In this document: positions 2,797-63,978 of the stretch, in pieces
Layout of the letters: the number at the start of each line of letters is the position of its first letter
Numbering within the stretch: position 1 is the first letter of the stretch
Assembly (NCBI GenBank): GCA_050486505.1
Contig: JBJHDK010000004.1
Coordinates: 2,548 to 66,547, forward strand
Direction: 5' to 3'
From: Fibrobacteria bacterium
GTDB lineage: Bacteria > Fibrobacterota > Fibrobacteria > UBA11236
Length of the DNA stretch: 64,000 bases
Translations under genes and position numbers: made by a program
The notes under the pieces: model-generated
The model's input: only the letters and a program-made list of their open reading frames with translations
Databases searched by the model: none
What the model was told of the DNA's origin: nothing

Positions 2797-2820
2797 GGCG
2801 ATGCGTTCTTCCCGTGGCGG

Positions 2821-7304: not shown

Positions 7305-7324
7305 GAAGCCGCTCTTTGTCGGGG

Positions 7325-8202: not shown

Positions 8203-8214
8203 AATGCGGTGAAT

Positions 8215-12214: not shown

Positions 12215-12235
12215 CTCGGTGTAGACCCATTCGGA

Positions 12236-12340: not shown

Positions 12341-12347
12341 TCCATTC

Positions 12348-14464: not shown

Positions 14465-15675
14465 CAGCGATCCAGCTCCCCGGCGATGATGTTGAGCGAA
14501 CCCAGGATCGCCACCACGTCGGCCAGCATCGCCCCCTCCATCAACTTCCCGAAGATCGGGTAGTTGATGAACGAAGGCGGACGCACGCGCACGCGCCAGG
14601 GGTTCGAGCTCCCGTCGGAGACAAGGTGGAAGCCCAGCTCCCCGTTGGGGGACTCCGTGGCGGAATACAGGTCGGTGACCGGAGGATTCAGCCCGTGCTC
14701 CTCGCCCGGCATGATCATCTTGAAATGGTGGATCATCGATTCCATGTCGGTGTAGGTCGACAGCTTGTCGGGCAGGGCGTGCTTCTGGTCGAGCGCAGAG
14801 ATGGGGCCCGGCTCCAGCATCTTCAGCGCCTGGCGCACGATGCGGATGCTCTGGTCCATCTCGTCGAGACGAACCTTGTAGCGCGCCAGGCAGTCGCCCT
14901 CGGTGTACACCGGCACGTCGAAGTCGAGCTCGTTGTAGATCAGGTAGGGGCGATACTTGCGCAGGTCGTATTCCACGCCCGCCGCGCGCGCCAAGGGGCC
15001 GGTGATGCCATAGCTGTCGGCCTCTTCCGCCGTGATGATCCCGATGCCCGCCGTGCGGTCGATGAAGATACGGTTCTTGTAGAAGCTCTCACGCAGCATC
15101 CCGACAGTCTTCTCCATGCTGTCGAGGATCGTCAGCACGCGCTTCTCGAAGTCGGCGGGCAGGTCGAAGGCCACTCCTCCCACGCGGGTGTAACTCGTGG
15201 TGAGGCGCGTGCCCGTCACCGCCTCGAACACGTCGTAGAGCTTCTCGCGCTCGACGAAGGTCCACAACAGCGAGGAAAAGGCGCCGAGGTCCATGGCGAG
15301 CGCGCCCACGCACAGGGAGTGGTCGGCCATGCGCGACAGCTCACACAGGATGGTGCGGATGACCTGGCAGCGCCGCGGCGTCTCGAGCCCGATCAACTCC
15401 TCGACGGCAAGGGCAAAGCCGATATTGTTGTTGAGCGGCGAGAAATAATTGAGCCGGTCGCTCAGCGTGATGAACTGGTTGTAGGTGCGGTATTCGCCCA
15501 GCTTTTCGAAGCCGGTGTGCAGGAACCCGATTTCCTGCTCGGCACGCAGCACGCGCTCGCCGCGCACCTCCATCATCACGCGCAAGGTGCCGTGCATCGC
15601 GGGATGCGAAGGCCCCACGTTCATGCGGACGACGTTGTCGTCGCGCTCGGTGACTTCTTGCTCGTAGGAATACAT
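14464..15675 (-). CDS. nuoD: NADH-quinone oxidoreductase subunit D (49 kDa)
   Basis: Start at ATG 15675 (MYSYEQEVTERDDNVVRMNVGPSHPAMHGTLRV…). Canonical NuoD sequence. The longer ORF N-terminus is not used. Confidence 0.93.
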   Translation of the reverse strand: MYSYEQEVTERDDNVVRMNVGPSHPAMHGTLRVMMEVRGERVLRAEQEIGFLHTGFEKLGEYRTYNQFITLSDRLNYFSPLNNNIGFALAVEELIGLETPRRCQVIRTILCELSRMADHSLCVGALAMDLGAFSSLLWTFVEREKLYDVFEAVTGTRLTTSYTRVGGVAFDLPADFEKRVLTILDSMEKTVGMLRESFYKNRIFIDRTAGIGIITAEEADSYGITGPLARAAGVEYDLRKYRPYLIYNELDFDVPVYTEGDCLARYKVRLDEMDQSIRIVRQALKMLEPGPISALDQKHALPDKLSTYTDMESMIHHFKMIMPGEEHGLNPPVTDLYSATESPNGELGFHLVSDGSSNPWRVRVRPPSFINYPIFGKLMEGAMLADVVAILGSLNIIAGELDR

Positions 15676-15676
15676 G

Positions 15677-16234
15677 TCAGTCGCGCGCCTCCGCGGGTGC
15701 CCTGTGCGCCGGAATCGCATGGTACACCGGGAAGGCACCGCGCTCGCCCCGGCCGCGCAGGGGATAGTCCTTGCGCAGGGGATAACCTTCGTAGTCATCG
15801 GGCATGAGAATGCGCTTCAGGTCGGGATGCCCGGTGAACTCGATTCCGTAGAGGTCGAAGATCTCGCGCTCAGTCCAGTCGCAGCCGGCGAACAGGTCGA
15901 CATTCGAGTCGATGCGGGGCGCGTCCGCGGGCACGAAGGCGCGCACCTGGGCCTTTACTCCGAGTTTGGGGGACAGGAGGGTCGTCACGACCGCAAAGCG
16001 TTCGGGCATGGCCTTGGGGTATTTCAGGTAATCGGCGCCGCAGCAATCGACGAAGCGGGTGAACGCCAACTCGGGGTCTTCCTTGAGAAGGCGCACCAGA
16101 TCGCGGGCATCGGCACCACGCACGGAGAACTGCACGTACTGGGTCTTCTCTTCCTTGCCGAGAAGGCGGTCCCCGAAGGCGGCTTCCACCTTGCCCGCGA
16201 GAACGGAAAGATTCCCCTTGCGGTAGGTCAGCAT
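15677..16234 (-). CDS. nuoC: NADH-quinone oxidoreductase subunit C (30 kDa)
   Basis: 185-aa NuoC-like protein, separate from nuoD (not a fused CD subunit). Confidence 0.88.
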   Translation of the reverse strand: MLTYRKGNLSVLAGKVEAAFGDRLLGKEEKTQYVQFSVRGADARDLVRLLKEDPELAFTRFVDCCGADYLKYPKAMPERFAVVTTLLSPKLGVKAQVRAFVPADAPRIDSNVDLFAGCDWTEREIFDLYGIEFTGHPDLKRILMPDDYEGYPLRKDYPLRGRGERGAFPVYHAIPAHRAPAEARD

Positions 16235-16237
16235 GGA

Positions 16238-16825
16238 TCAGTGCCCCCCGTTTCCCTCTGTCCCGACGCGGGACGACGAGGACGCAAAGGCATCGGGCGA
16301 ACGATAGTTGGGCGACAGCGAGGGGTCGCGCGCGAGGTCGTCGCTGATGAACTCCGTGGACTTGGCCTTGCCCTGTTTCGCCTTTTCCTGCACGGCCATC
16401 AGGGCCTCGATGAAGGCCTCGGGGCGCGGGGGGCAGCCGGGCATGTAGGCGTCCACGGGGATGAACTGGTCGACGCCCTGGATCAGGGTGTAGGTGTCGA
16501 ACACCCCGCCGCTGCTGGCGCAGGCGCCCATCGAAATGCACCACTTGGGTTCGGGCATCTGTTCCCAGATGCGCTGCAGCACCGGCATCATCTTCAGGGA
16601 AATGCGTCCCGAAACGATCAGCAGGTCGGACTGGCGGGGCGTGAACTTGAGCACTTCGGATCCGAAGCGCGCGGCATCGTACTTCGAGCTGAACGTCGCC
16701 ATCATCTCGATGCCGCAGCACGCGGTGCCGAAGGGCATGGGCCACATCGAGTTGCCGCGCGCCCAGTTGATGGCGAAGCCCAGCCGCGTCGTGATGACGT
16801 CGTTGATGCGCTCGTTCAATCCCAT
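16238..16825 (-). CDS. nuoB: NADH-quinone oxidoreductase subunit B (20 kDa, 4Fe-4S N2)
   Basis: Start at ATG 16825 (MGLNERINDV…), overlapping the nuoA stop. Conserved NuoB motifs (GTACCGIEMM, CPPRPE). Confidence 0.93.
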   Translation of the reverse strand: MGLNERINDVITTRLGFAINWARGNSMWPMPFGTACCGIEMMATFSSKYDAARFGSEVLKFTPRQSDLLIVSGRISLKMMPVLQRIWEQMPEPKWCISMGACASSGGVFDTYTLIQGVDQFIPVDAYMPGCPPRPEAFIEALMAVQEKAKQGKAKSTEFISDDLARDPSLSPNYRSPDAFASSSSRVGTEGNGGH

Positions 16826-17178
16826 TCGAGGGCTCCCGTGCGAATGATGTAGAGCAGGCCGAGACCCAGCACGCCCATGAAGACCAGGACGGCGATCAAG
16901 GCGCCGCTGCCGAGCAGGTTCTGGTAATCCGCGGCGAAAGGCAGGAGGAAAATGGTCTCGATGTCGAAGAGGATGAAGAGCAGCGCGAAGACGTAGAACT
17001 TGATGGCGAAGGGGCGGTGCGGGTTCTGCATCTGGTCGACGCCGCACTCGTAGGGCTCGTATTTGACCTTGCTCCAGGTGCGGCGGGGCCCCAACAGGGA
17101 GGACAGGCCGAGACCCGCCACTCCGACAAGGAGGGCAAGCCCGATGAATGCCAGCAGCGGCAAATACTCGCTTAGCAC
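16816..17178 (-). CDS. nuoA: NADH-quinone oxidoreductase subunit A
   Basis: 120-aa NuoA/ND3 protein of three helices (…YECGVD…). It is the first gene of the nuoABCDEFGHI block, with a 350-nt non-coding region upstream. Confidence 0.9.
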   Translation of the reverse strand: MLSEYLPLLAFIGLALLVGVAGLGLSSLLGPRRTWSKVKYEPYECGVDQMQNPHRPFAIKFYVFALLFILFDIETIFLLPFAADYQNLLGSGALIAVLVFMGVLGLGLLYIIRTGALEWD

Positions 17179-22128: not shown

Positions 22129-22947
22129 CTACTCGTCGTCGAAAACCGCCGGATCGTAGTGCCCGAGCGAAAAGAATTTTTTCTGGTCGGGCATCTCGCG
22201 AAAGCTGGCGCGGAACTCCTTCGGGGTCATCTTCTTGTACTTCGCGAACTGCTTGGTAAAGAAGCTGTGATCATAGAAGCCGGCCTCCACGGCAATATCC
22301 GCAATGGGCTTGCTCGTGCCAACCAACAGGCGACACGCCACATTCAACCGAACCATGGCCAGGTAGCGCCCGGGCGTCACCTGGAACTCGCGCTTGAAAC
22401 GTCGTGTGAAACGTGAAAGGCTGAGCCCCGCCAACTCCGCGAGTTCTTCGGTGCGCAGCGGTTTGGCATAATGCGCCATGATATGCCTGACAACGGGCTC
22501 CAAGGTGCGGTAGGGGTGCAAGTCCGAATCCGCTGAACGCAAATCCTGCGTGATTCCGATCAGGCCGGCGGCATTGCCGTGCCTCCCCCTGAGGGGGATT
22601 TTTGTGGTCTGATACCAGTCCACCATGCCGTCCGCGGTGGGAATGATCTCGGGTTTGTTGATTTGCGGCACACCCGTGCGCATGACCTCGGCATCATCGT
22701 GACGGTATGCCTCCGCCTGCAACTTCCAGAAGAAATCGTAATCCGTCTTGCCGACGATTTCTTCCGGGCCGTTGAGCCCCATTTTTTCCCAATGGTTGCG
22801 GTTCGACATGATGAACCGGCTCTGCGAGTCCTTGATGAAGATGTGGATGTTGCTGGGGAAATAGTTGAGCAACTTTTCGATCAACTCATCCTCGGGGAGT
22901 TCCCCCAGAAATGCGCGACGGAACTCCTGATGGTCTGCACGTGTCAT
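22129..22947 (-). CDS. PAS domain-containing AraC-family transcriptional regulator (paralog 1)
   Basis: N-terminal PAS-like region (…FIKDSQSRFIMSNRNHWEKMGLNGPEEIVGKTDYDFFW…) and C-terminal AraC helix-turn-helix (…AGFYDHSFFTKQFAKYKKMTPKEFR…). 272 aa. Confidence 0.8.
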   Translation of the reverse strand: MTRADHQEFRRAFLGELPEDELIEKLLNYFPSNIHIFIKDSQSRFIMSNRNHWEKMGLNGPEEIVGKTDYDFFWKLQAEAYRHDDAEVMRTGVPQINKPEIIPTADGMVDWYQTTKIPLRGRHGNAAGLIGITQDLRSADSDLHPYRTLEPVVRHIMAHYAKPLRTEELAELAGLSLSRFTRRFKREFQVTPGRYLAMVRLNVACRLLVGTSKPIADIAVEAGFYDHSFFTKQFAKYKKMTPKEFRASFREMPDQKKFFSLGHYDPAVFDDE

Positions 22948-23819
22948 GGGGTTGCCTTTCTCCGCGACGGAGTCCCGCGGACACCGGCCGATAGTTCGGC
23001 GCTTTCCCTGGCCGAACTCCGCGGCGTCAGATCTCCGAGCGGGAAAAATTTCTTGCGGTCGGGAAGGTCGCGAAACCGGATGCGAAACTCCTTGGGCGTG
23101 AGGCCCTTGTACTTCAGGAACTGTTTGGTGAAAAAACTGTGGTCGTAAAAGCCCGCCTTCAGTGCGACTTCAGAAATCGGCGAAGTGGTGTCAAGCAGCA
23201 GCCTGCATGCTGCATTCAGTCTGACCATGGAAAGGTAGCGGCCCGGTGTCACCCCGAACTCCTGCTTGAAGCGACGGATCAGGTAGCCAGGGCTCAACCC
23301 GGCAACATCGGCCATTTCTTCGAGCCGGAGCGGCTTCGCGTAGTTCGTCATGATGTGGCGAACCACGGGTTCAAGGGTGCGGTAGGCCGACAACGCCGAA
23401 TCCGCGGAGCGCAGGTCGCGGATGATGCCCACAAGACCCTCGATCCCTCCATCCTTGCCGCGCAGGGGGATTTTGGTCGTCTGGTACCAATCCACCATGC
23501 CGTCCGCGGTGGGAATGATCTCGGGCTTGTTGATTTGCGGAGTCCCGGTCCGAAGAACCTCGCCATCGTCATGGCGGTAGGCTTCTGCCTGCAATGACCA
23601 AAAAAAATCATAGTCGGTCTTGCCGATAATCTGCTCCCCGCCCTCCAGGCCCATCTTTGTCCAGAAGCTGCGATTCGCCATCATGAAGCGGCCTTGCGCA
23701 TCCTTGACGAATACATCGACATTATCAGGAAAATGCTCCATGATTCTCTCGGTGATCTCGTTCTCGCGAAGCCTGTCGAGAAACGCGTGCCGAAGATCCT
23801 CCTCGCGACCAAGCGCCAT
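22944..23819 (-). CDS. PAS domain-containing AraC-family transcriptional regulator (paralog 2)
   Basis: Start at ATG 23819 (MALGREEDLRHAF…). It shows high identity to paralog 1 across the PAS and helix-turn-helix regions and carries an extra C-terminal tail. Its stop overlaps the paralog-1 start as ATGA. Confidence 0.8.
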   Translation of the reverse strand: MALGREEDLRHAFLDRLRENEITERIMEHFPDNVDVFVKDAQGRFMMANRSFWTKMGLEGGEQIIGKTDYDFFWSLQAEAYRHDDGEVLRTGTPQINKPEIIPTADGMVDWYQTTKIPLRGKDGGIEGLVGIIRDLRSADSALSAYRTLEPVVRHIMTNYAKPLRLEEMADVAGLSPGYLIRRFKQEFGVTPGRYLSMVRLNAACRLLLDTTSPISEVALKAGFYDHSFFTKQFLKYKGLTPKEFRIRFRDLPDRKKFFPLGDLTPRSSARESAELSAGVRGTPSRRKATP

Positions 23820-23821
23820 GC

Positions 23822-23950
23822 ATCCCCTCCGAAGTACGACTGTCGAAATGATACCAATGTTATGGCGAGCGAGACCCGTAAGTGAGCGAGAATTTCCACG
23901 TGGGCGGCGCGACACCGGTTAAATTCCCTCGTCCCGCAACCGGACGCGAC
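23822..23950 (+). promoter_or_regulatory. Possible degenerate FMN riboswitch (RFN element) in the ribD leader (needs a covariance-model check)
   Basis: The leader contains GCGAGCG, CCGGTTAAATTCC and AACCGGACG, which resemble the conserved RFN blocks (AGCCCGCGAGCG; CCGGUGNAAUUCCGG; AGUCCGGAUG), and its position in front of ribD is the classic one. Overall the match is partial. Confidence 0.25.
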
Positions 23951-23952
23951 TC

Positions 23953-25065
23953 ATGGATACTCGAACACACCACTCGCGACAGGCACTACGCCACATGGAT
24001 GCGGCCTTCGCCGAAGCGTTGGCCGCCAAGGGGCGGACCCTGCCCAACCCGGCGGTGGGCGCAGTGCTGGTCAGGAACGGCCGCGTCGTGGGGCGCGGCG
24101 GGACGCGGCCGGCAGGACAGGCGCACGCCGAAATCGTCGCGTTGGAGCAGGCTCGCGGCGAAGCGCGAGGAGCCACCCTGTACGTGACGCTCGAGCCCTG
24201 CCGGCACTTCGGCAGAACACCGCCCTGCACCCGCGCCATCATCGACGCCGGTGTGACGAGGGTCGTGGCCGCCTGCACCGACCCCAACCCCAAGGTCGCC
24301 GGAAATGGGCTTGCGGATTTGCGGCGCGCCGGCATCGAGGTCGAATGCGGACTGATGCGCGAGCGCGCCGAAACCTTCTACGCGGGCTTCTTCTTCTGGA
24401 TCCGGAACGGGCGCCCACGCATCGTCGTCAAGGTCGCGCAAAGCCTCGACGGGCGCATCAATGCGCGACCGGGCACGGAAACCCCGCTCACCGGCCTTGA
24501 GGCGCACCACTTCGCACATGCCCTCCGCGCGAGCGCCGATGCGATCCTCATCGGGGGTACAACCCTGCGCAGCGACAACCCGGACCTGACCCCGCGGCTT
24601 GTTCCCGGTGCGCCGGCGCCGGATGTGTTGGTCCTCACGCGCGACCGGATCCCAAGTCCCCGTCACAAGGTCTTCGCCCGCAACCGTCCGTCCCGAACCG
24701 TCGTGATTTCACCGGATCCCCCCCTTAACCTGCCTGCCCACGTGGATCTGGTCCGCATCCCCGGCAAAAGACCGCTTGTGCGGGAACTCCTGAACGTCTT
24801 CGCCGATCGCGGGTACCACGAGATTCTTGTGGAGGGGGGGCGTGCGGTGTGGTCTCCTTTCCTGAACGGGGGACTCTGCGACGCGCTGCATCTCGTCACG
24901 GCGCCGGCGCTCCATCCGGGAGGGGAACGCTGGGATGAAGGTCTTCGGGCAGGATGGGTGAAACCCCTTGAATTTCATAGATTTACGCCGCTTGGCCCTG
25001 ATGTTTGGGCCGAATTTCGACGGCGACCGGCCACCGCAACCGCGCGGAGGAGAACCGCGCCTTGA
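23953..25065 (+). CDS. ribD: Bifunctional riboflavin biosynthesis protein RibD (deaminase/reductase)
   Basis: CMP/dCMP deaminase zinc motif (HAEIVAL…TLEPCRHFGRTPPC) followed by a RibD_C reductase domain. The start is possibly the ATG at 23995. Confidence 0.9.
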   Translation: MDTRTHHSRQALRHMDAAFAEALAAKGRTLPNPAVGAVLVRNGRVVGRGGTRPAGQAHAEIVALEQARGEARGATLYVTLEPCRHFGRTPPCTRAIIDAGVTRVVAACTDPNPKVAGNGLADLRRAGIEVECGLMRERAETFYAGFFFWIRNGRPRIVVKVAQSLDGRINARPGTETPLTGLEAHHFAHALRASADAILIGGTTLRSDNPDLTPRLVPGAPAPDVLVLTRDRIPSPRHKVFARNRPSRTVVISPDPPLNLPAHVDLVRIPGKRPLVRELLNVFADRGYHEILVEGGRAVWSPFLNGGLCDALHLVTAPALHPGGERWDEGLRAGWVKPLEFHRFTPLGPDVWAEFRRRPATATARRRTAP

Positions 25066-25095
25066 CGCATTGAGTGAAAGGGCCCGGTACACATC

Positions 25096-25755
25096 ATGTT
25101 TACAGGGATCGTGCAGGAAACCGGTCGTGTCCGCGGGCTCTCTCCCCTTGGCGGAGCCGTGCGCTTTACGATTTCCGCTCCCGGGCTTTCCTCGCGGCTT
25201 GCCGTCGGTGACAGCGTTGCCTGCGACGGTGTCTGCCTGACGGTGGAGCGACTGGAGCGCGACGGATTCACCGTCTGCGCCGTGCCGGAAACGCTCGCGC
25301 GAACGACGTTGGGCCACCTGGCCATGGGCTCGGCGTTGAACCTGGAGTCCGCGTTGACTCCCACGACGCCGATGGGCGGGCATTTCGTCCATGGTCACGT
25401 CGACGGCACATGCGAAGTGATCGAAATCCGCCCCTTGGGCGACGGGGAGGGGCGTGAAGTCACCGTGCGCCTGCCCGGGCCGTTCGCGCGTTACTGCGTG
25501 TACAAAGGCTCGATCTGTTTATCGGGCGTAAGCCTCACGATCGCCGCCGTGGAGGGGAGCTCCGTGCGAGTGGCCCTGATCCCGCACACGCTCTCCGCCA
25601 CCACCTTGGGCAATGCAACGGTGGGGGACCTCCTGAACTTCGAAGTCGACATCCTGGCGAAATACGTGGAGCGTCTCGCGGGACGGGGCACGGGCTCGCA
25701 GCAGGCGTCGCTTGATGAGGCGGCGCTCAGGAAGTGGGGTTATGAAGTTTCATAG
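25096..25755 (+). CDS. ribE: Riboflavin synthase (alpha subunit)
   Basis: MFTGIVQETGRV… with duplicated lumazine-binding halves (…DGVCLTV…, …SICLSGVSLT…). 219 aa. Confidence 0.9.
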   Translation: MFTGIVQETGRVRGLSPLGGAVRFTISAPGLSSRLAVGDSVACDGVCLTVERLERDGFTVCAVPETLARTTLGHLAMGSALNLESALTPTTPMGGHFVHGHVDGTCEVIEIRPLGDGEGREVTVRLPGPFARYCVYKGSICLSGVSLTIAAVEGSSVRVALIPHTLSATTLGNATVGDLLNFEVDILAKYVERLAGRGTGSQQASLDEAALRKWGYEVS

Positions 25756-26920
25756 CATCGCCGAGGCGATTTCGGACCTGAGGCGCGGACGATCCATCGT
25801 GGTGGTGGACGACAAAAACCGCGAGAACGAAGGCGACGTCGTCTTCGCTGCGTCCAAATCGACGCCCGCAAAAATCAATTTTCTCGCGAAGCACGCGCGC
25901 GGCCTGGTGTGCGTGGCGCTTTCGGCGGATCGCGTCGAGGCCCTCGGCCTGCCTCCGATGACCGACCAGAACCGGTCTCGCTACGACACGGCATTTACCG
26001 TGTCCGTCGAAGCGCGCGAGGGCACGACCACGGGAATTTCGGCTTCCGATCGCAGCCTCACCGCACGCTTGCTGGCCGACGAGTCCTCGGGTCCGCGCGA
26101 CTTCATCAGCCCCGGCCATGTGTTTCCAATCAAGGCGCGGCGCGGTGGCGTGCTCGTGCGTGCGGGCCATACCGAGGCCGCCGTGGATCTGGTGCAAATG
26201 GCCGGGCTCGGAAACGCCGGGGTGATCTGCGAGATCATGAAAGAGGACGGGTCCATGGCCCGGCTTCCGGATTGCGCCCGATTTGCGCGCAAGCACGGAC
26301 TGAAAATCATTTCAGTGGAAGACTTGATCCACTACCGCCACATGCGCGAAAAACAGGTGCGCGCCGCCGGTTCCTTCCGTTTGCCCACTCCGCATGGGGA
26401 GTTCGAGGCGCACGCCTTCGAAGATCTTGTTCACGGTCGCATGCATTTGGCCCTCGTGCGCGGAGAGTTGTCCCAGACGCGCGCCGTCCCCGTGCGCGTG
26501 CATTCGGAATGCGCGCTCGGCGACGTGTTCGGGTCCCGGCGGTGCGACTGCGCCGACCTGCTGCAGCAGGGGCTCCGTGCCATTGCCCGGGAAGGCGGCG
26601 TCTTCCTATATATGCGCCAAACCCATTCCGAGGAGGCCTTCGGCCGCACCCTGCAAAAGTACGCCGCCGAGGACGCCCAACCGCGCTCCCGGGAAGCGAA
26701 GGGACGTTCCCAACACGGGGCCCCCATGGACGCCAGAACCTACGGCATCGGCGCGCAAATCCTCTTCGAGTTGGGGATCCGCCGCCTCAGCCTGCTGACC
26801 AACCATCCCAAGCGCATCCAGGGTCTTGAGGGTTACGGCCTCACCATCGTGAGGCAGGCGCCCCTGAGGGACGTAAAACCGGTCCGAACCCCGCGAGTCC
26901 GAAGCAAGGAGACAACATGA
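25742..26920 (+). CDS. ribBA: Bifunctional 3,4-dihydroxy-2-butanone-4-phosphate synthase / GTP cyclohydrolase II
   Basis: Start at ATG 25742 ([10 protein letters not shown]…). DHBP synthase motif ([12 protein letters not shown]) is followed by GTP cyclohydrolase II (…[20 protein letters not shown]…). Confidence 0.9.
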
Positions 26921-27378
26921 ACATCCTCGAAGGCAATCTCAACGCGAACGGAAAATCCTTCGGGATCGTCGTGTCCCGATTCAACACCCTTGTCACGCAA
27001 GAACTGCTCAAGGGTGCGGTCGACTGCCTCGTCCGCCACGGGGCCCGGGAGAAGGATATCACGGTGGCCTGGGTTCCCGGAGCCGGCGAGATCCCGCAAG
27101 TGCTCAGGCGTTTCGCCGCATCGGGCAAGTTCGACGCGGTCATCGCGTTGGGTTGTGTGATTCGCGGCGCCACGCCTCACTTCGACCAGGTCGTGCAGAC
27201 CGCCGTGAAGGGGTTCGGTGGCGTCGCGGACGTCGGCGTCCCCGCCACCTTCGGGGTTCTCACCACCGAGAACCTGGAACAGGCGCTGGAACGGGCAGGC
27301 TCCAAGGCCGGGAACAAGGGCTGGGATGCCGCACTGGCGGCCATCGAACTGACCTCGCTTTGGAGCAAGCTGCCGTGA
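26917..27378 (+). CDS. ribH: 6,7-dimethyl-8-ribityllumazine synthase
   Basis: [23 protein letters not shown]…, the canonical lumazine synthase start. It overlaps ribBA by 4 nt. Confidence 0.9.
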
Positions 27379-44968: not shown

Positions 44969-45817
44969 CTATTTCGTTCCCACTCCAAGCCACGCCTGGC
45001 CGCTCGACTCGATCGCGCCCGGCCCGTAGGTCGAGATCAGGTAGGCATGCACGCCTTCGGCAACGGCTTCCCAGCGCTCTTCGCCGAGCTTGTTCCGCAA
45101 CAACACCAACGGGGCCACCGTGCGTTGCGCCGCTTCCCAGAACTCCACAAGCGTGTCGAAGCGGTGCGTGTGACGCGCTTCATGGATCTTCACATCCTGG
45201 AACCCCGCGGCGCGCATCTCCTCCGCGAACTCTTCCACCTCACCGAGCGGGGCCTTGCCCTTGCCGAACGGAAGATCCGGCATTTGTGCCTTGATCCCCT
45301 CGATCGCGGTGCCGAACGGACCCGGCAAGGGCGCCCAGCTTGAGATCACCGCGCGACCACCGGGCTTCAGCACGCGCAAGAGTTCGCGAAACCCCGCGCC
45401 GCGATCGGGAAAGAACATGAGACCGAACATCGAGAAGGCCCCGTCGTAGGTCGCATCGGGCCATGGCAACTTTTGCCCGTCGCCCTCGTGGATCGTGATG
45501 CCCTCAATGACGGAGGCCTGGAGCCGTTTCCGGAACTGCGCCAGCATGTCGGGCGAGAAGTCGAGCGCATCGACCCGGGCGCCGATCGCGGGGTCACCCG
45601 CCGCCAACAGGGACAGCGTTCCCGGCCCGCATGCCACGTCGGCGATGCGCGCGCCCGGAGGAAGCTTCGCGAGCTTCAGCGCCTCGCGGGAGTAGTGCTC
45701 GAAGAACGGAAGCAACTCCGCGGTGTAGTCGCCGGAGACGAGGTTCCAGGGTTGTGGCGTCGCAAGGGGAGACGGCGGCGGGGTGGTGGTCATGGGGTCA
45801 ATATTAGCCGGTCGCAA
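44969..45817 (-). CDS. Class I SAM-dependent methyltransferase (Methyltransf_11-like)
   Basis: Motif I (ARIADVACGPGTLS) and post-I/II motifs (…LKPGGRAVISSW…). 282 aa. Confidence 0.83.
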   Translation of the reverse strand: MRPANIDPMTTTPPPSPLATPQPWNLVSGDYTAELLPFFEHYSREALKLAKLPPGARIADVACGPGTLSLLAAGDPAIGARVDALDFSPDMLAQFRKRLQASVIEGITIHEGDGQKLPWPDATYDGAFSMFGLMFFPDRGAGFRELLRVLKPGGRAVISSWAPLPGPFGTAIEGIKAQMPDLPFGKGKAPLGEVEEFAEEMRAAGFQDVKIHEARHTHRFDTLVEFWEAAQRTVAPLVLLRNKLGEERWEAVAEGVHAYLISTYGPGAIESSGQAWLGVGTK

Positions 45818-45848
45818 TGTAGGGGCAAATGATTATTTGCCCCTACAT
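45815..45848. repeat. Perfect 15-bp inverted repeat AATGTAGGGGCAAAT-gatt-ATTTGCCCCTACATT in the divergent methyltransferase/recF control region
   Basis: Read directly from the sequence. It is a member of a GTAGGGGC-type palindromic repeat family that recurs at 47350-47430 and 52945-52994. Confidence 0.7.
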
Positions 45849-45939
45849 TCCCTTACAGGGACCCACCACCACCCCGCCGTCCCGCGCCCCATCCACCGGA
45901 TCGCCCGCGCAGCGTACCCCCCAACTACCTTTCACCTCC

Positions 45940-47037
45940 GTGCACATCGACCGACTGACGCTTCACCATTTCCGCAATCTTCACGGCCTCGACGTGCGAC
46001 CCGCCCCGGGCCTTAACCTCATCGCCGGGCCCAACGGCCACGGCAAATCGAACCTCCTCGAAAGCGTCCATTACCTCGCGCTGGCCCACTCGGGCCGCAC
46101 CCGCAAGGACAAGGACCTGATCGCTTGGGACGCGCCCGCCGACGCGGGTTTCGTGGTCAGGGCGGAAGCCACGATCGGTGCGCGTGACCATGTGCAGTCG
46201 GTGGAATACACGGAACACGGAACGCGGGTAAAGGTGGAGGGGCTGGAGAGCAAGCGCCTCGGCGACCTGCTGGGGCATTTGCTGCTGGTGGCGTTTTCGC
46301 CCGAAGACCTGGATTTGCTCCGGGGGGGGCCGCAGGAGCGGCGCCGGTTCCTGGACGTGCTTCTGTGCCAACTCGACCCCGGCGCGCTGGACGTGCTGCG
46401 GCGCTACAGGCAGGCCCTGCGCCAGCGCAACGCAGTGCTCCGCTGGAACCCCGGCAAGGAGGAGGAGGCCCTCCTGGAGGCCTACGAGGCGACCCTCGCG
46501 GAGGCCGGCGCCGACATCGCCCGAAGGCGTCTCGACTGGGTCGAAAAACTGGCTCCGATGGCAGCCGGATTTTACCGGGAAATCAGCGGCAACGGAGAGC
46601 CCCTGACCCTGCGCGTGACCTCCGCCGCCGGAGCCTCCGAAGACCCGTCTTTATTGGCCGAAACGCTGCTCGCGAAGCTTCGTGAAAAGCGAGCCCAGGA
46701 CCGCGAAACAGGGCTCACTTCGGTCGGCCCGCACAGGGACGATTTGCTAGCTTTTCTGGCCGGAAAAACGGTGCGGGACTTCGCCTCCCAAGGGCAAAAA
46801 AGGTCCGTGGCGCTGGCCCTCAAGCTGGCCGCCGCGGGACTGCTCGAAGAGACGGCGGGCCTCCCTCCCATCCTGATTCTGGACGACGTGTTCGCCGAAC
46901 TCGACCCCGGACGCCGCGAGCGTTTCGGCGCCCTGATTGCCGGGCGCGGTCAGGCGTTCATCGCCACTCCCCGGCGCGAGGACCTCCCCTTCGCCGTGGA
47001 GTCCGTCGTGCAACTGGAGAAGGGAAAGGCGGCCTGA
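45940..47037 (+). CDS. recF: DNA replication and repair protein RecF
   Basis: Probable GTG start at 45940 (VHIDRLTLHHFRNLHGLDVRPAPGLNLIAGPNGHGKSNLLES…, containing the Walker A motif), with the signature region …GQKRSVALALKLA… and Walker B ILILDDVFAELD. Confidence 0.9.
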   Translation: MHIDRLTLHHFRNLHGLDVRPAPGLNLIAGPNGHGKSNLLESVHYLALAHSGRTRKDKDLIAWDAPADAGFVVRAEATIGARDHVQSVEYTEHGTRVKVEGLESKRLGDLLGHLLLVAFSPEDLDLLRGGPQERRRFLDVLLCQLDPGALDVLRRYRQALRQRNAVLRWNPGKEEEALLEAYEATLAEAGADIARRRLDWVEKLAPMAAGFYREISGNGEPLTLRVTSAAGASEDPSLLAETLLAKLREKRAQDRETGLTSVGPHRDDLLAFLAGKTVRDFASQGQKRSVALALKLAAAGLLEETAGLPPILILDDVFAELDPGRRERFGALIAGRGQAFIATPRREDLPFAVESVVQLEKGKAA

Positions 47038-47038
47038 C

Positions 47039-50251
<3,213 letters not shown>

Positions 50252-50388
50252 GTCACAAAGTTACAGAATCCATCCCGGTCCGCCCCGGAACCATCGCCGA
50301 CCGCAAAGGAAACCCCACGACTTCCGAACATTTCTCTACGACCCCGCGCTCTTGTACATTGCGCAAACTCTTCCGCAAAGGAGCTCTC

Positions 50389-51099
50389 ATGTCGCGTTCT
50401 TCGTTCCTCCCGCTTGCCCTGACCTTCCTCGCCTTCGCCGGAGCGCCCGGAATCCACGCCTCCGGCTCCGCGCCGGAGCCCCGCGTCTCCGTCCACGGCA
50501 CGGGCGAGATCCGCGTCGCGCCCGACATGGCCGTGCTGACGGTGGAGGCAACCTACAGCCACAAAACCCCGTCCGAGGCCTCGGCCGAAGTCGGCAAGGC
50601 CATGGCGGAGATCCTCCGTGCCGCGCGCAAGACCGTGCGCGACACCGCCGACCTGCGCACCGCGCGCATCCAGCTCAATCCGGAATACGATTGGGTGGAC
50701 GGGAAACGCAGATTCAGGGGGTACTCCGCCAGTCAAACCCTTGAGGTCACGGTGCGGGAGTTGGCCCGCCTGGAGGGGTTGCTGGAAGACCTGTTCAAAA
50801 CTCCGCTCACGGGCTTGAACGGGCCCGACTTTCGGCATTCGAAGGCCGACAGCCTGACGCGGGCGGCACACGCTCTGGCCGTGCGGGATGCCGCGCTCAA
50901 CGCGAAGACCCTGTGCGAGGCGGCGGAACGCACGTGCGACCAACTCGTCAGCCTGCGGATGTCCGGCGGCGGAGGCGGCCCGGTGTACCCGATGGCGGAG
51001 TCGCGGATGATGATGGCGGACGCCAAGGCCGGCATGCCGGTGCAGCCGGGGCTGCTGACCTTCACCGCGACAGTGACGGCGGAGTATCGGTTGGAGTAG
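50389..51099 (+). CDS. SIMPL domain-containing protein (DUF541), secreted
   Basis: Start at ATG 50389 with an AAGGAG site. Signal peptide (MSRSSFLPLALTFLAFAGA) followed by a SIMPL-like sequence (…VSVHGTGEIRVAPDMAVLTVEA…). Confidence 0.72.
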   Translation: MSRSSFLPLALTFLAFAGAPGIHASGSAPEPRVSVHGTGEIRVAPDMAVLTVEATYSHKTPSEASAEVGKAMAEILRAARKTVRDTADLRTARIQLNPEYDWVDGKRRFRGYSASQTLEVTVRELARLEGLLEDLFKTPLTGLNGPDFRHSKADSLTRAAHALAVRDAALNAKTLCEAAERTCDQLVSLRMSGGGGGPVYPMAESRMMMADAKAGMPVQPGLLTFTATVTAEYRLE

Positions 51100-57719: not shown

Positions 57720-57723
<4 letters not shown>

Positions 57724-58091
57724 TTTGCCATCAATCCGGGATTGCGAAGAATATGGCGTATCTCGACGACTTGATAGATGAGGTAACCCGCCATTCCGGT
57801 GAACACGAAGGAATACAACGAGGGGCCATGTCCCAAGCCCCGGATCACCAGAAGCATGATCGCCGCGAGGAACAGCAGTCGCGCCATCATCGAGATGAAA
57901 ATCAGCCGGATTGGATCCATTTGGGAACGAAGACCGAGGATCCAGATGGCTGCGAATGCGTTGACGGCCATGAGAGCGAGGCCTGCCCAAGCGTAAAAGA
58001 GGTGCATTTCGGGCCAAAATCCGGACAGAATCGCAGCGGCGCCGAAAAGCGCCAGTGTGGTCATGCCCAAGGATTTCAGAAAGGCGTTCAA
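57720..58091 (-). CDS. atpI: ATP synthase protein I-like small hydrophobic protein
   Basis: 123-aa protein of four helices, encoded directly upstream of atpB and overlapping it by 4 nt, the classic atpI position. Confidence 0.6.
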
Positions 58092-58218: not shown

Positions 58219-58452
58219 TCAGGGTGGCCCTCCGTGACGGTTCGCCCGATCAAGACCCTTGACCACGCGATAGACCGTATAGCCGGCCCCCAAAAGCCCC
58301 GCCGAGGTTCCTCCAAAGGCCCCCCATGGATGCCACCCCCAGGTGTTGTCGATCCACTTCCCCAGCAGCATTCCGCCGGCAATCCAGACTGCGAGCGTCC
58401 AACCCAGGGTCAGCAACAGGGCCAAATCTGGAGAAATCTTGGGGCCCGGCAT
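58219..58452 (-). CDS. AtpZ/AtpR-like putative F0F1-ATPase-associated small membrane protein
   Basis: Start at ATG 58452, giving a 77-aa protein MPGPKISPDLALLLTLGWTLAVWIAGGMLLGKWIDNTWGWHPWGAFGGT… with two TM helices that resembles the 'ATP synthase gene 1' family. The longer 127-aa ORF overlaps bactofilin and is rejected. Confidence 0.55.
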   Translation of the reverse strand: MPGPKISPDLALLLTLGWTLAVWIAGGMLLGKWIDNTWGWHPWGAFGGTSAGLLGAGYTVYRVVKGLDRANRHGGPP

Positions 58453-58474
58453 GGGAGTTCCCGTGCGTTGCGGG

Positions 58475-58816
58475 TCAGTCGCGGGCGGCGTCCATCGAGC
58501 AATTGCCCTGAAAAATCGCGCCCTCTTGCACCACAAGCTCACGCGCGTGCAGATCGCCCACCAGCACGGACTTGTCTTCGAGCACGAGCTTCTCCTGTAC
58601 ATGGATGTTTCCCGTCAAGCGTCCGGCCAGCGTCGCGGATCGGCTGGTGACGTCGCCTTCGACGGTTCCTGTCAGGCTGAGAACCAGATTTCCGCCCACG
58701 GAAATCGACCCCTTGACCGCGCCCTCGACGCGCAAGTCGTGTTCCACCGCCATGTCGCCGGTGATGCGGGTGCCTTCGCCGATGAAGGTCATGCTGGTTG
58801 CGGCGTTTTTCGACAT
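58475..58816 (-). CDS. Bactofilin family cytoskeletal protein (CcmA-like)
   Basis: 113-aa beta-helix repeat pattern (…ITGDMAVEHDLRVEGAVKGSISVGGNLVLSLTGTVEGDVTSRSATLAGRLTGNIHVQEKLVLEDKSVLVGDLHARELVVQEGA…), which is the DUF583/bactofilin signature. Confidence 0.8.
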   Translation of the reverse strand: MSKNAATSMTFIGEGTRITGDMAVEHDLRVEGAVKGSISVGGNLVLSLTGTVEGDVTSRSATLAGRLTGNIHVQEKLVLEDKSVLVGDLHARELVVQEGAIFQGNCSMDAARD

Positions 58817-58828
58817 GCTCGTTCCTCG

Positions 58829-59647
58829 TTATTCCAGATAGGTAAGTGGGTCGACCGGCTGCCCCCGGAAGATAATTTCGAAATGCAAATGGGGCCCAAG
58901 GCTGCGACCGGTACTCCCCACGATTCCGAGCGGGCTGCCTTTGCCGAGCTGGTCTCCGGGCTTCACGAATACCCGGGCAAGGTGTCCGTACAGCGTTTCC
59001 ACGCCGAAGTCGTGGTTGACGCGCACATACAGCCCCAGATCATTGTCCCAGCCCTGCTCCGTCACCATGCCGCGCGCCGCGCTCACCACGACGGCATTTT
59101 CCTCGGTCAGGATATCGATGCCGTCGTGCCGCGGCTCGGTGGAGCTTCCCGGCGAAAAGCGCTGGCTGATGATGCCCTTCACCGGCCAGATGTTCGGGTT
59201 TCTCTCACGGGCAAGTGAGGCATCGCGCTCCTCGAGTTGCCGGTCGATGGCGCGCAAATTCTCAAACAAGCCGGTCATGTCGCGACCTGTCCACGATGGA
59301 ACCGCGGCAACGCGCGCAGGATCGGGCGCGTCCGACAAGAACGCCTGCAAGATGTTCCTGATCGATCGCTCCCGCTCGGCCATCATGGCCAGCTCACGCT
59401 CGATCTGGAACATCTTGCGCTGTTGGGCCTGCAATTCCTGGTTGCGTTCGGCCATGTGGCTGGCCAACAGAACCTTCCCCTGGATCTGCGTCAGTTTCAC
59501 TGCGGCGAAACCAGCAGCGAACAGCGCCAGAACAAAGGCGTAAAAAAGGAACTCAAAGAACGGCCGTCGCAGCCGGAACGTCCAGGCCTCACCCGAGCCT
59601 TCGGGGAGAATCTGGATGGTCACGAAGCTTTTTTTGCGCGGGGGCAT
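58829..59647 (-). CDS. M23 family metallopeptidase (LytM/Csd1-like) with N-terminal TM anchor and coiled coil
   Basis: TM helix, a coiled-coil region, and a C-terminal M23 domain with the HxxxD…HLHFE motif (…LYGHLARVFVKPGDQLGKGSPLGIVGSTGRSLGPHLHFEIIFRGQPVDP…). Confidence 0.85.
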   Translation of the reverse strand: MPPRKKSFVTIQILPEGSGEAWTFRLRRPFFEFLFYAFVLALFAAGFAAVKLTQIQGKVLLASHMAERNQELQAQQRKMFQIERELAMMAERERSIRNILQAFLSDAPDPARVAAVPSWTGRDMTGLFENLRAIDRQLEERDASLARERNPNIWPVKGIISQRFSPGSSTEPRHDGIDILTEENAVVVSAARGMVTEQGWDNDLGLYVRVNHDFGVETLYGHLARVFVKPGDQLGKGSPLGIVGSTGRSLGPHLHFEIIFRGQPVDPLTYLE

Positions 59648-59748
59648 CGGGTCAAATTAGGAAGTCTTGGGATACGGAAAAAATCAGGGGGGACTCCCCG
59701 AGGACAACCCTCCGCCTCGGTCCTGACGAAGGCCGCACAGGAAAACCC

Positions 59749-60603
59749 TCAGGCCGTGCGTCCGCGCCGCAGGACGTCGACCATATTGTTTAATTCGTCA
59801 CTGTTCTTGTAATGAATTTCGAGCACTCCCTTGCGGGCGCCGCCACGCAGCGAAACCTTCATGCCCACAAGCGACTTCACCTCGTCGAGGAACGCGCGTG
59901 TATTCGCATCCAGAACCGCGCCCTTCCCGGCCTTCCGCGAAGGGCCAGCCTTTTCGGCATCGCGAACATTCAGGGAAGCTTCCAGGATCGCGCGTGCACG
60001 CTGGATCTGTTTCGCCCCCTGGTATTGTAGCAGCGCCCGGCCGTGTCCGGCCGTCAGCTTGCCCTCTCGCAACCAGGCCTGAACCTGCGGTTCCAGCCTC
60101 AGCAAGCGCAGGGTATTGGTCACCGCGGCGCGACTGCGCCCTACGCGCACGGCGATTTCCTCGTGGGTCATTCCGCAGGCTCCGGCCAGTTGCTCGTAGG
60201 CCTGCGCTTCTTCGACCGCATTGAGCTGCACCCGCTGGATGTTCTCAACAAGCGCGAGCTCGCGCATGTCGCGGTCGGACACCTGCTCGCGAACCAACGC
60301 GGGAATGTGCGTCCGGTTCAGGCTCTGGAATGCCCGAAAACGTCTCTCGCCGGAAACAATCTGATAGCCATCTCCGTGCTTGCGCAGGAAGATCGGCTGG
60401 ATCAGGCCGCTTTGTGCGATCGAGTCTGCAAGTTCCTGCAACTCCTCTTTCGAAAAATCCTGCCGGGGCTGGAAAGGGTTCGGTAAAATCAGCGAGAGTT
60501 CGATCTCATGCACCGCTGACCCCGTTTGAGGATCCTTGACCTCCGTCCCGAGGTTCGCGAAGATCGCGTCGAGCCCCTTGCCAAGCGCGCGCCGGGAGCT
60601 CAT
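59749..60603 (-). CDS. parB: Chromosome partitioning protein ParB (Spo0J)
   Basis: ParB box GLIQPIFLRKHGDGYQIVSGERRFRA and helix-turn-helix. 284 aa. Confidence 0.95.
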   Translation of the reverse strand: MSSRRALGKGLDAIFANLGTEVKDPQTGSAVHEIELSLILPNPFQPRQDFSKEELQELADSIAQSGLIQPIFLRKHGDGYQIVSGERRFRAFQSLNRTHIPALVREQVSDRDMRELALVENIQRVQLNAVEEAQAYEQLAGACGMTHEEIAVRVGRSRAAVTNTLRLLRLEPQVQAWLREGKLTAGHGRALLQYQGAKQIQRARAILEASLNVRDAEKAGPSRKAGKGAVLDANTRAFLDEVKSLVGMKVSLRGGARKGVLEIHYKNSDELNNMVDVLRRGRTA

Positions 60604-61373
60604 TTCTCCAGAATCTCCCTGGCGAGCTCCATGTAGCGCACCGCTCCCACCGAAACCACGTCGTAAAGAATCACGGGCTTGCCGAACGATGGCGCCTCCG
60701 AGAGCTTCACGCTGCGGGGAATAATGGTTTTGAAGACCTTCTCCGAGAACGTGTTCTGCACATCCTCCGCCACCTGCTTCGAGAGATTGAGGCGACTATC
60801 GTACATCGTCAGCAACGCGCCCTCGATCGCCAGCTTGGGATTCGTGCTCTGTTGCACCAGACGAATCGTGTTCAGCAGTTCTGCCAGTCCCTGCAATGCA
60901 TAGTACTCGCACTGGATGGGAATCAACACCGAATCCGCCGCAGTCAGAACATTCAGGGTGAGAATGTTGAGGCTCGGCGGCGAGTCGATCAAAATGAAAT
61001 CGTAGTCCGCACGCACCGCCTCCAGCACACGCGCCAGCCGTCGTTCGCGCTTGGACTCCTGCAGCAGCTTGACCTCGAGACCTGCAAGGGAGCGCGAGCA
61101 TGGAAAGACGTCGAGATACGCCATGCCCGTCTTTTTAATGAAACCTTTGACGCGATCCTTCGTGACCTGTTCTTCGGGCAGCAGGAGGGCGTCGTAAACA
61201 TCCTCCTCGAAATCTTCGTCGAAGCCCAGTCCCTGCGTCGAGTTCGCCTGCGGATCCATATCCACCAGCAAGACGCGCTTCTCCATGGCCGCCAAAGCAG
61301 CTGAAAGATTCACGCAGGTGGTGGTCTTTCCCACCCCGCCCTTCTGGTTGCATGCGGCGATGATCCTGCTCAC
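60600..61373 (-). CDS. parA: Chromosome partitioning ATPase ParA (Soj)
   Basis: Probable GTG start at or near 61373 (VSRIIAACNQKGGVGKTTT…, the deviant Walker A), overlapping the rsmG stop. My hand indexing was off by one in this stretch, so the coordinate is good to ±1 nt. The 374-aa ORF N-terminus is an artefact. Confidence 0.88.
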   Translation of the reverse strand: MSRIIAACNQKGGVGKTTTCVNLSAALAAMEKRVLLVDMDPQANSTQGLGFDEDFEEDVYDALLLPEEQVTKDRVKGFIKKTGMAYLDVFPCSRSLAGLEVKLLQESKRERRLARVLEAVRADYDFILIDSPPSLNILTLNVLTAADSVLIPIQCEYYALQGLAELLNTIRLVQQSTNPKLAIEGALLTMYDSRLNLSKQVAEDVQNTFSEKVFKTIIPRSVKLSEAPSFGKPVILYDVVSVGAVRYMELAREILEK

Positions 61374-61969
61374 GTTTCTCCCGCCTTCGAAGTCACGACG
61401 ACATAATACGTTCTGGCAATGCCCGGGAGCACATAGGGATGGTTTTCCACATCCTCGTAACCCGGCGGCACATCGTGGCACATCTCCGCCTTGAATGTCA
61501 TGAACTGGCCTTGCGGCTTCAGCATCTTGTAGGCCAGCTTTGCGTCGCGCGTGAACTCTCCGAAAGCACGGCAGCAGACCACGTCCATGTGGGAGAGGTA
61601 CACGCGTTCCACGCGCTCGGCAAGAATATGGAAGTTCGGGATGCGAACCTCGCGAATGATCTCCTGCATCAGGGCGCACTTTTTCTGATTGGGCTCGATG
61701 GCGAAGAAATCGATGTCGGGGCATGCGATCGCCAATGGCAACGAAGGAAGACCCGGGCCCGCACCCATGTCTGCAAGCTTGTTCACCTCGTTGAAGAACG
61801 GGATCAACTGCAGCGAGTCAACGATGTGGCGCTCCCAGATCAGCGCCTCATCCTGCTGGCTGACAAGGTTCAGGTTCCTGTTCCAGCGTTTGTAAATCCC
61901 TTCAAGCGTCCGGAGTTTCTTCTGGATTTTGGCATCAAGCGTGGAGGGATCAAACAGGAGACCATTCAT
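61370..61969 (-). CDS. rsmG: 16S rRNA (guanine527-N7)-methyltransferase RsmG (GidB)
   Basis: 199-aa GidB family protein (…LADMGAGPGLPSLPLAIA…) in the classic rsmG-parA-parB arrangement. Confidence 0.9.
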   Translation of the reverse strand: MNGLLFDPSTLDAKIQKKLRTLEGIYKRWNRNLNLVSQQDEALIWERHIVDSLQLIPFFNEVNKLADMGAGPGLPSLPLAIACPDIDFFAIEPNQKKCALMQEIIREVRIPNFHILAERVERVYLSHMDVVCCRAFGEFTRDAKLAYKMLKPQGQFMTFKAEMCHDVPPGYEDVENHPYVLPGIARTYYVVVTSKAGET

Positions 61970-62067
61970 AGTCCGCTAAATTTACCACAAGGTTTTGCGC
62001 TTTCAAGGAAAATGTAAGCGCGGGCCGCCACCCCCGACTCCTGATGGTCGCGCAGGATTCCCGGACA

Positions 62068-62083
62068 TGTTTCACGTGAAACA
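62068..62083. other. parS: parS centromere site 1 (TGTTTCACGTGAAACA)
   Basis: Exact match to the 16-bp parS consensus palindrome, embedded in ACATGTTTCACGTGAAACATGG. It lies in the rsmG-parAB upstream region. Confidence 0.8.
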
Positions 62084-62137
62084 TGGGGTTAATCCGGACG
62101 CCTCGATGACGTACTGTTTTGCTGGTACCCCGGTCGA

Positions 62138-62153
62138 TGTTTCACGTGAAACA
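62138..62153. other. parS: parS centromere site 2 (TGTTTCACGTGAAACA within a 28-bp perfect palindrome GGTCGATGTTTCACGTGAAACATCGACC)
   Basis: Second exact consensus parS, 70 bp from the first and flanked by extended dyad symmetry. Confidence 0.8.
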
Positions 62154-62172
62154 TCGACCGGAAGCGGGCAGG

Positions 62173-63978
62173 TTATTCCTTGTCCATCGACAAAACCGCC
62201 AAAAACGCCTCTTGGGGGATTTCCACCGTTCCCACGGCCTTCATCCGCTTTTTGCCCTCTTTCTGCTTTTCGAGGAGCTTCCGTTTGCGGGTGATGTCAC
62301 CGCCATAGCACTTCGCGGTGACGTTTTTGCGCAGGGCCTTGACCATGCTTCTGGAAATGACGCGGCCGCCAATCGCGGCCTGGATCGCGACTTCGAACAT
62401 CTGCTGCGGGATCAGCTCCTTAAGCTTGGAACACAAGGCATTTCCCCAGGTATACGCCTTGTCCCGGTGGATGATGACCGAGAACGCGTCGACGGGCTCG
62501 CCGTTCAGGAGAATATCCAGTTTGACCAGATTCCCCTTGCGGTACCCCATGGGTTCATAGTCGAACGAAGCGTACCCCTTGCTCACGGACTTAAGCTTGT
62601 CGAAAAAATCGAACATGATTTCGCCCAGGGGGAACTCGTAGGAAAGCGTCACCTTGTCGGGAGTCAGATACTCCATGTGGACATAGACCCCGCGCTTTTC
62701 CTCTGCCAGCTGCATCACACCGCCCACATACTCCTTGGGGAGGATGATCTGCGATTTAACGAATGGCTCCTCGATGCTGTCATAGCGGCCGGAATCAGGG
62801 AGTTTACTGGGGTTCTCGATCGTGATCGCCTCTCCGCCGGGGAGATTGACGTGGTACTCCACGTTGGGGACCGTGGAAATCACGTTCATGTCGAACTCGC
62901 GGTCGAGGCGCTCCCGGACCACTTCCATGTGCAGCAGCCCGAGAAATCCGACACGGTACCCGAAGCCAAGGGCCTGCGAGGTTTCGGGCTGCCACGAAAG
63001 GGCCGAGTCGTTCAGGGCGAGCTTCTCCAACGCATCGCGCAAGTCTTCGAAATCGTTCGAATCCACGGGATAGATCCCCGCAAACACCATCGGTTTGATT
63101 TCCTTGTATCCCTTCCAGGGCGCTGCAGGCGGACGGGCAGGATCGAACACCGTGTCCCCGATTTTGGTGTCCTTAACATTCTTGATGTTCGCGATGAGGT
63201 AGCCGACCTCGCCGGCCGCCAATGAATCTGTCGGAACCCGCTCCATCGTCAGGTAGCCGATGTCGGTGGCGTCGTATTCCTTGCCGGTGGCCCACATCTT
63301 GATCGCGGCCTTGTGCTTCAGGATCCCTTCGAAAACCCGGATAAAAGCGATGGCTCCCCGGTATGAGTCGAATTTCGAGTCGAAAATCAGGGCGCGCAGG
63401 GGAAGATTTCGCTCGCCTTTCGGCGGGGGGATGTCCTCGACCACGCGATCCAGCAACTCCGCGACCCCGATCCCTTCCTTGGCGGAAACCCGCGGGATCC
63501 TGTCGGGATCATATCCCAACAGCTCCCCCAGGCTTTCCGCGATATCGTCCGGATGCGCGGAGGGAAGGTCGATTTTATTCAAAATCGGCAGAACGGTCAA
63601 ATTATTGTCAATTGCTAGGTAGAGGTTGCTGAGGGTTTGCGCTTCGATCCCCTGGGTCGCATCAACAACCAGGATTGCCCCCTCACAAGCGGCAAGGCTG
63701 CGGGACACCTCGTAGGTGAAATCCACGTGCCCTGGGGTATCGATGAGGTTCAGGAAGTAGTCCTGCCCTTGGTACTGGTGCCGCATGCGGATTGCATGCG
63801 ACTTGATCGTGATGCCCCGTTCGCGCTCCAGTTCCATGTCATCGAGCACCTGTGCCTGCATTTTTTGACGGGTGATCGTCCCTGTGGCTTCGAGCATGCG
63901 GTCGGCGAGCGTGGACTTACCGTGGTCGATGTGCGCGATGATGCAGAAGTTGCGGATTTTGTCGGCGTCAGGGCGCAT
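62173..63978 (-). CDS. lepA: Elongation factor 4 (LepA)
   Basis: G-domain motifs ([23 protein letters not shown]) and the LepA-specific C-terminal domain. 601 aa. Confidence 0.95.

Follow-up and report, generated by a model that had tools for sequence, protein, structure and literature searches.

Does the intergenic gap between lepA and rsmG in an uncultured Fibrobacteria-like bacterium carry the chromosomal centromere, that is, the parS sites on which the ParB protein of a ParABS segregation system would be loaded? We addressed this question in a stretch of 64 kb of genomic DNA (64,000 nucleotides, referred to here as the window), whose features relevant to the question are compiled in Table 1. 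A preliminary description of this DNA, based on its letters, had reported two exact 16-mers 70 bp apart in the non-coding region between lepA and rsmG, just upstream of the partition operon, and had read them as parS sites serving the adjacent parAB genes. Both 16-mers were found, each an exact copy of TGTTTCACGTGAAACA, and the gene coordinates agree with the position that had been given to them.

Table 1. Features of the window that bear on the parS sites, the partition operon and the proximity of the origin, with positions counted from the first nucleotide of the window.
Feature	Positions	Strand	Remarks
recF	45829-47037	+	confirmed by profile match
DciA/DUF721 gene	46937-47326	+	confirmed by profile match
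gyrB	47445-49388	+	confirmed by profile match
Terminator-like hairpin and T-run 3' of parB	about 59674-59701	-	
parB	59749-60603	-	ParB_N, HTH_ParB and ParB_C domains
parA	60600-61373	-	Walker-type partition ATPase, KGGVGKTT
rsmG (16S rRNA m7G527 methyltransferase)	61370-61969	-	TIGR00138, 127 bits vs cutoff 99.5; first gene of the operon
Promoter-like site	61979-62006	-	TTGAAA, 16 nt, TGg-TAAATT
parS site 1	62068-62083	.	exact TGTTTCACGTGAAACA; rsmG-side copy
parS site 2	62138-62153	.	exact TGTTTCACGTGAAACA; lepA-side copy
lepA (EF4)	62173-63978	-	TIGR01393, 956 bits; its 3' end bounds the gap that bears the parS sites

Both sites lie inside the 203-bp gap that separates lepA from rsmG, with 70 bp from the start of one to the start of the other, so that the two copies are contained within 86 bp. 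Since lepA, rsmG, parA and parB are all encoded on the minus strand, both sites are upstream of rsmG in its reading direction. Each of the two is a 16-bp inverted repeat that fits exactly the parS consensus TGTTNCACGTGAAACA, which was first defined in B. subtilis and is present on most bacterial chromosomes (PMC7022226). A scan for parS over the 64-kb window returned these two matches only, a count that remained at two when as many as 3 mismatches were allowed; shuffled sequence gave a mean of 0.14 matches to TGTTTCACGTGAAACA at 3 mismatches. From the base composition (63% G+C), we estimate that about 3e-6 exact copies would be expected per 64 kb, so the finding of two is far beyond chance.

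The two sites differ in the extent of their symmetry. Site 1 is part of a perfect palindrome of 20 bp (62066-62085), and site 2 occupies the centre of a perfect palindrome of 32 bp (62130-62161), in which the parS sequence is preceded by CCGGTCGA and followed by TCGACCGG; the 28 bp initially described for this second palindrome fell 4 bp short of its actual length. The outer flanks of sites 1 and 2 are also partly symmetric to each other, with 27-nt arms that are 85% complementary. A large inverted repeat spanning both sites was considered and rejected, because this symmetry is mostly that of the parS palindrome itself and the additional match between the flanks is weak. Rfam and tRNA scans of the window produced no matches, so no known RNA element overlies the parS sites.

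The genes downstream of the sites form a compact unit with the layout of two parS sites, promoter, rsmG-parA-parB and terminator. The stop codon of rsmG and the GTG start codon of parA overlap by 4 nt (GTGA, 61370-61373), as do the stop codon of parA and the ATG of parB (ATGA, 60600-60603), and these overlaps indicate translational coupling along the three genes. The hairpin with a T-run located 3' of parB is the probable end of the operon. A longer version of parA, of 374 aa, which appears in the mechanical list of open reading frames, was discarded as an artefact, its in-frame upstream ATG lying inside rsmG.

The proteins encoded by this operon are those expected of a ParABS system. ParA, with 257 aa, has AAA_31 and CbiA domains and the P-loop KGGVGKTT, and belongs to the ParA/MinD family of P-loop ATPases, so ParB has a partner Walker-type ATPase in its own operon. 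ParB itself matches PF02195, PF17762 and PF23552, each with a score over its cutoff, as well as the generic ParB model TIGR00180 (172.9 bits, cutoff 58.45). Among solved structures, it is matched best by chromosomal ParB/Spo0J proteins, with E-values from 1e-40 to 8e-51, including those of Thermus (1vz0, 8e-51), Myxococcus (7bnk), Bacillus (6sdk, 1e-43), Caulobacter (6t1f) and Helicobacter (4umk). The translated sequence contains the motifs LGKGL (residues 7-11), GERRFRA (85-91) and ENIQR (120-124). Motifs of the types GERRxRA and ENLQR are involved in CTP binding and clamp formation in ParB proteins, and LG(R/K)GL is the N-terminal motif for interaction with ParA.

The specificity of the DNA-binding domain could also be examined. 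Four interface residues set the preference for parS or for NBS, the binding site of the related protein Noc (Jalal et al. 2020, PMC7383237); in Caulobacter numbering they are R173, T179, A184 and G201 in ParB and Q, K, K and R in Noc. Two of these positions discriminate between the proteins, with R173 and G201 in ParB versus Q and R in Noc, and position 184 is variable among ParB homologues (PMC7383237). The ParB of the window aligns with the Caulobacter crescentus protein (6S6H, 6T1F) with no gaps across the recognition helices. Its residues R158, T164, R169 and G186, aligned to the DNA-binding domain of 6s6h, give the combination R-T-R-G, in which the equivalents of R173, T179 and G201 are identical and the one at position 184 is R, unlike the A of Caulobacter. 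As judged from the alignment, the specificity residues match the ParB state at both discriminating positions and are of the parS type. The GERRxRA CTP motif is a further likeness between the two proteins.

If the 16-mers are parS, they should persist in related organisms. A scan of species-representative genomes based on ParB yielded four assemblies, Fibrobacteria among them (L001-L004), whose ParB is ~70% identical to that of the window, and a metagenome scan based on RsmG yielded five closer contigs (L022-L026) with an RsmG 83-86% identical; L025 ends 71 nt upstream of rsmG and is uninformative on parS. Two parS sites with 0-1 mismatch, 30-37 bp apart, are found directly upstream of rsmG in each of the assemblies L001-L004, the nearer site beginning 66-68 nt before the rsmG ATG. 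In the closer relatives, which have lepA upstream just like the window, the gap between lepA and rsmG measures from 203 to ~1200 bp and contains two sites in L022, three in L023, and four in both L024 and L026. Altogether, nine loci with 2-4 parS sites each account for 23 sites at no more than 1 mismatch in 144.9 kb, and all 23 lie between the upstream gene and rsmG, with none elsewhere in this DNA; in the 81 kb that belong to the relatives, there is no parS copy outside the region upstream of rsmG.

The gene on the other side of the cluster is not constant. A segment of 4 kb with a two-component system separates lepA from the parS sites in L001 and L002, and the gene upstream of the sites is trpF in L003. 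What the parS cluster is tied to in this clade is the promoter region of rsmG, and not any upstream gene. When the loci are compared by blastn, similarity is confined to the coding flanks, the promoter and the parS 16-mers; outside the 16-mers, a preferred A before and a preferred T after are the only conservation. The 16-mer is thus conserved in place while its flanks diverge beyond alignment, which is the footprint expected for a selected protein-binding site. In the same loci, the copy number (2-4) and the spacing (30-456 bp, not conserved among loci) vary rapidly around a 16-mer that remains constant. Since both vary freely, the two sites of the window are most likely independent loading sites and not a phased pair. 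A single perfect parS site also stands just upstream of rsmG-parA-parB in a Gemmatimonadetes locus (L008).

Taken together, the exact consensus, the canonical cognate ParB and ParA, the parS-type specificity residues and the positional conservation across the nine loci lead us to assign a probability of about 0.92 to the reading that the two 16-mers are chromosomal parS, the ParB loading sites of a ParABS segregation system, and the proposal that they serve the adjacent parAB operon is well supported by the same evidence. Following what is established for ParABS systems, dimers of ParB, which is encoded 1.5 kb downstream, would bind each palindrome through their helix-turn-helix domains. By analogy with the ParB proteins of Caulobacter, Bacillus and Myxococcus, the protein bound to parS would then bind CTP, close as a clamp and slide onto the flanking DNA, and repeated loading would build a partition complex around the lepA-rsmG-parAB region. 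This complex would be moved by ParA-ATP so that sister chromosomes segregate, and SMC would probably be recruited to it. The CTP-dependent clamp and sliding mechanism has been described for the ParB of Caulobacter (PMC7053999, PMC8367383).

The location of the sites raises the question of whether they act mainly as an operator, with ParB, either at parS or sliding from it, repressing or tuning the promoter of rsmG-parA-parB and segregation being secondary. The promoter-like site of Table 1 is the sole match of its kind in 61800-62400, and its -10-like element ends ~9 nt ahead of the rsmG ATG, so that the mRNA of the operon would be nearly leaderless. The sites are directly upstream of this element: 61 nt separate the end of site 1 from the -35 hexamer in the window, and the gap between the promoter and the nearest site is only ~13 nt in L001-L004. 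Clamps of ParB leaving parS would have to cross the rsmG promoter, and effects of chromosomal ParB on transcription have been reviewed (PMC7022226). Against this reading, the distance from the rsmG ATG back to the start of the nearest site ranges from 66 to 334 nt across the loci, and such widely varying distances fit poorly with a fixed operator geometry. Moreover, chromosomal ParA proteins of this type do not have the N-terminal DNA-binding domain of the plasmid type Ia autorepressors, a trait that agrees with the mere 257 aa of the ParA studied here. We therefore consider it unlikely that the sites are mainly an operator; autoregulation would be an added role of parS and not a true alternative to it.

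Apart from its relation to the parS sites, the promoter region has a motif of its own, CTTGAA-N16/17-GTA(A/C)ATTTA-N5-8-CTATGAAT, which precedes rsmG and is conserved in the window (61969-62006, minus strand), in L001-L004 and in L022-L026. We take this motif to resemble the Bacteroidetes-type promoter with -33 TTG and -7 TAnnTTT elements.

A second alternative concerns the lepA-side site, whose 32-bp palindrome could primarily be a hairpin at the 3' end of lepA, either a terminator or an RNA-stabilising stem, the match to parS being incidental or secondary. The palindrome begins 11 nt past the lepA stop codon and would form a long perfect stem as RNA (z = -4.0 for the entire gap), and GC-rich hairpins occupy the corresponding place, directly 3' of lepA, in L001 and L002. 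Furthermore, chance is unlikely to have added eight symmetric base pairs to each side (4^-8). However, neither strand has a T-run after the stem, and a terminator scan of 61800-62400 was empty, whereas hairpins with T-runs are used by the same genome after atpC and parB. In their sequence, the central 16 bp do not differ from site 1 or from the sites of the relatives, which have palindromes of 18-24 bp and do not carry the 8+8 bp extension; this extension is present in the window only, which argues that the conserved unit is parS and not the hairpin. For these reasons (the missing T-run and the absence of the extension from relatives), an intrinsic terminator was rejected as the primary function of the palindrome, and we regard a primary hairpin role as a quite improbable reading. 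A terminator or RNA-stabilising role would be, at most, an add-on to parS. As for the origin of the 8+8 bp extension, template-switch repair and selection for a lepA 3' hairpin are both possibilities; a search of metagenomes for the 32-bp palindrome gave 0 matches.

The two added roles could also be combined with parS function. The lepA-side site could be dual-purpose, serving both for ParB loading and as a 3' hairpin of lepA, and the cluster could let ParB clamps gate the rsmG-parAB promoter. We consider this combination doubtful and put it forward as a speculation; if true, it would couple the state of the segregation complex to the expression of the par operon in this lineage.

The protein that binds the sites might instead be a ParB paralogue with a function other than chromosome segregation, for instance a nucleoid occlusion factor like Noc or a ParB of plasmid or prophage origin. 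The top NCBIfam match of the ParB protein is indeed the Noc model TIGR04285, at 215 bits. This score is well under the Noc cutoff of 315, whereas the generic ParB model passes its own; the specificity residues are the R-T-R-G of ParB and not the QKKR of Noc, and the site sequence is that of parS and not of NBS, from which it is distinct at two half-site positions (PMC7383237). In addition, the surrounding genes are chromosomal housekeeping genes (lepA, rsmG, the atp operon and gyrB). A Noc/NBS system was rejected on the score, the residues and the site, and the paralogue reading as a whole is hardly credible. Equally implausible is the view that the two copies play no part in a centromere, having been duplicated by chance or belonging to a family of dispersed repeats (REP or MITE-like). 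The partial symmetry of the outer flanks is a weak observation in its favour; against it stand the two copies in 64 kb with none elsewhere in the DNA of the relatives, the conserved position amid diverged flanks and the negligible chance expectation; within the ~145 kb of clade DNA examined, the 16-mer is not a generic repeat.

The arrangement can be compared with systems that are already known. The parS sites of B. subtilis are distributed across the origin domain, with one of them inside spo0J. Its Spo0J (ParB) has 10 parS sites, 8 of them in the ori domain (PMC7022226 Table 1). The window shares with B. subtilis the identical 16-bp palindrome, the same ParB domain layout and the position of sites beside a parAB-type operon; it differs in having two sites, both intergenic and within 86 bp of each other, and in that no Noc paralogue is evident within the window. 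Closer in number are Hyphomonas neptunium and chromosome 1 of Burkholderia cenocepacia, each of which has its 2 parS sites in the ori domain; those of H. neptunium are exactly TGTTTCACGTGAAACA (PMC7022226 Table 1). The window resembles both in having two consensus sites, with the 16-mer identical to that of H. neptunium, its count being that of 64 kb only; unlike these two Proteobacteria, it comes from a Fibrobacteria-like lineage.

The gene order offers a further comparison. In Pseudomonas and its relatives, the order gidA-gidB(rsmG)-parA-parB-atp adjoins oriC, and the organisation of genes in origin regions was reportedly reviewed by Ogasawara and Yoshikawa in 1992 (cited in PMC7022226). The window has the same succession of rsmG-parA-parB followed by the atp operon, all in the same direction. 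It departs from the Pseudomonas order in that neither gidA/mnmG nor oriC is seen, lepA being found upstream instead, and in that genes for an M23 peptidase and a bactofilin are interposed between parB and atp.

These interposed genes (58475-59647, minus strand) are directly 3' of parB and before the atp operon, and the metal-binding motifs HxxxD and HLH of the peptidase are intact. The order parB-M23-bactofilin is kept in Fibrobacteria relatives (L002-L004 and L022) and in the Gemmatimonadetes locus L008, a hint that the segregation operon and a cell-wall module of bactofilin and peptidase are linked in a conserved way. Two small ORFs for membrane proteins, at 58219-58455 and 57720-58091 on the minus strand, separate the bactofilin gene from atpB; by tblastn, relatives have them too, and they are probably AtpZ/AtpI-type accessory genes of the atp operon.

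The presence of recF, DUF721 and gyrB had been used in the preliminary description to place the window near the origin of replication. The three genes hold up as neighbours, at ~13-16 kb from the parS sites (Table 1). Clusters of parS, the rsmG-parAB-atp genes and recF-gyrB are typically near oriC, so an origin-proximal position of the window is a reasonable and plausible reading of its gene content. Annotation of the large ORFs with Pfam revealed neither dnaA nor dnaN in the 64-kb window, and a scan of the window for DnaA boxes revealed no cluster, with one 9-mer at 1 mismatch versus 4.3 expected; the origin would thus be outside the window. The order rsmG-parAB-atp, which reads leftward, resembles the oriC-side arrangement of some Proteobacteria and would put the origin to the right of the window. 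The GC skew, profiled in 2-kb steps over the 64 kb, has several sign changes and no clear single switch, so it was rejected as evidence for or against the proximity of the origin.

Other features of the window were recorded during its annotation. The recF-dciA-gyrB cluster does not adjoin dnaA or dnaN, and its upstream neighbour is a divergent gene for a class I SAM methyltransferase (44969-45817, minus strand). The recF ORF carries ~39 additional codons at its N-terminal end and shares ~100 nt with the dciA ORF, which suggests that the true starts are probably further in. An ORF of 288 aa (49385-50251, minus strand), located between gyrB and the SIMPL/DUF541 gene at 50359-51099 (plus strand), has no Pfam match; it failed the filter for codon-position G+C and is perhaps not a genuine gene. 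In its left part, the window is an ordinary housekeeping context, with the complex I (nuo) operon (1348-17178, minus strand) and a riboflavin cluster of ribD, ribE, ribBA and ribH (23953-27378, plus strand). Two adjoining genes for PAS-AraC regulators are found at 22129-23915.

The element described here is an ordinary case within a class that has been characterised in depth, and as such is already known, and nothing in our findings challenges the current understanding of ParABS; among the papers available to us, a search gave none devoted to ParB-parS in Fibrobacter. For this uncultured Fibrobacteria-like bacterium, the two parS sites are a reliable annotation landmark of the chromosomal centromere and, as far as the sequence indicates, point to a functional ParABS system. 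Given the whole replicon, they could also help to orient the assembly relative to the origin.
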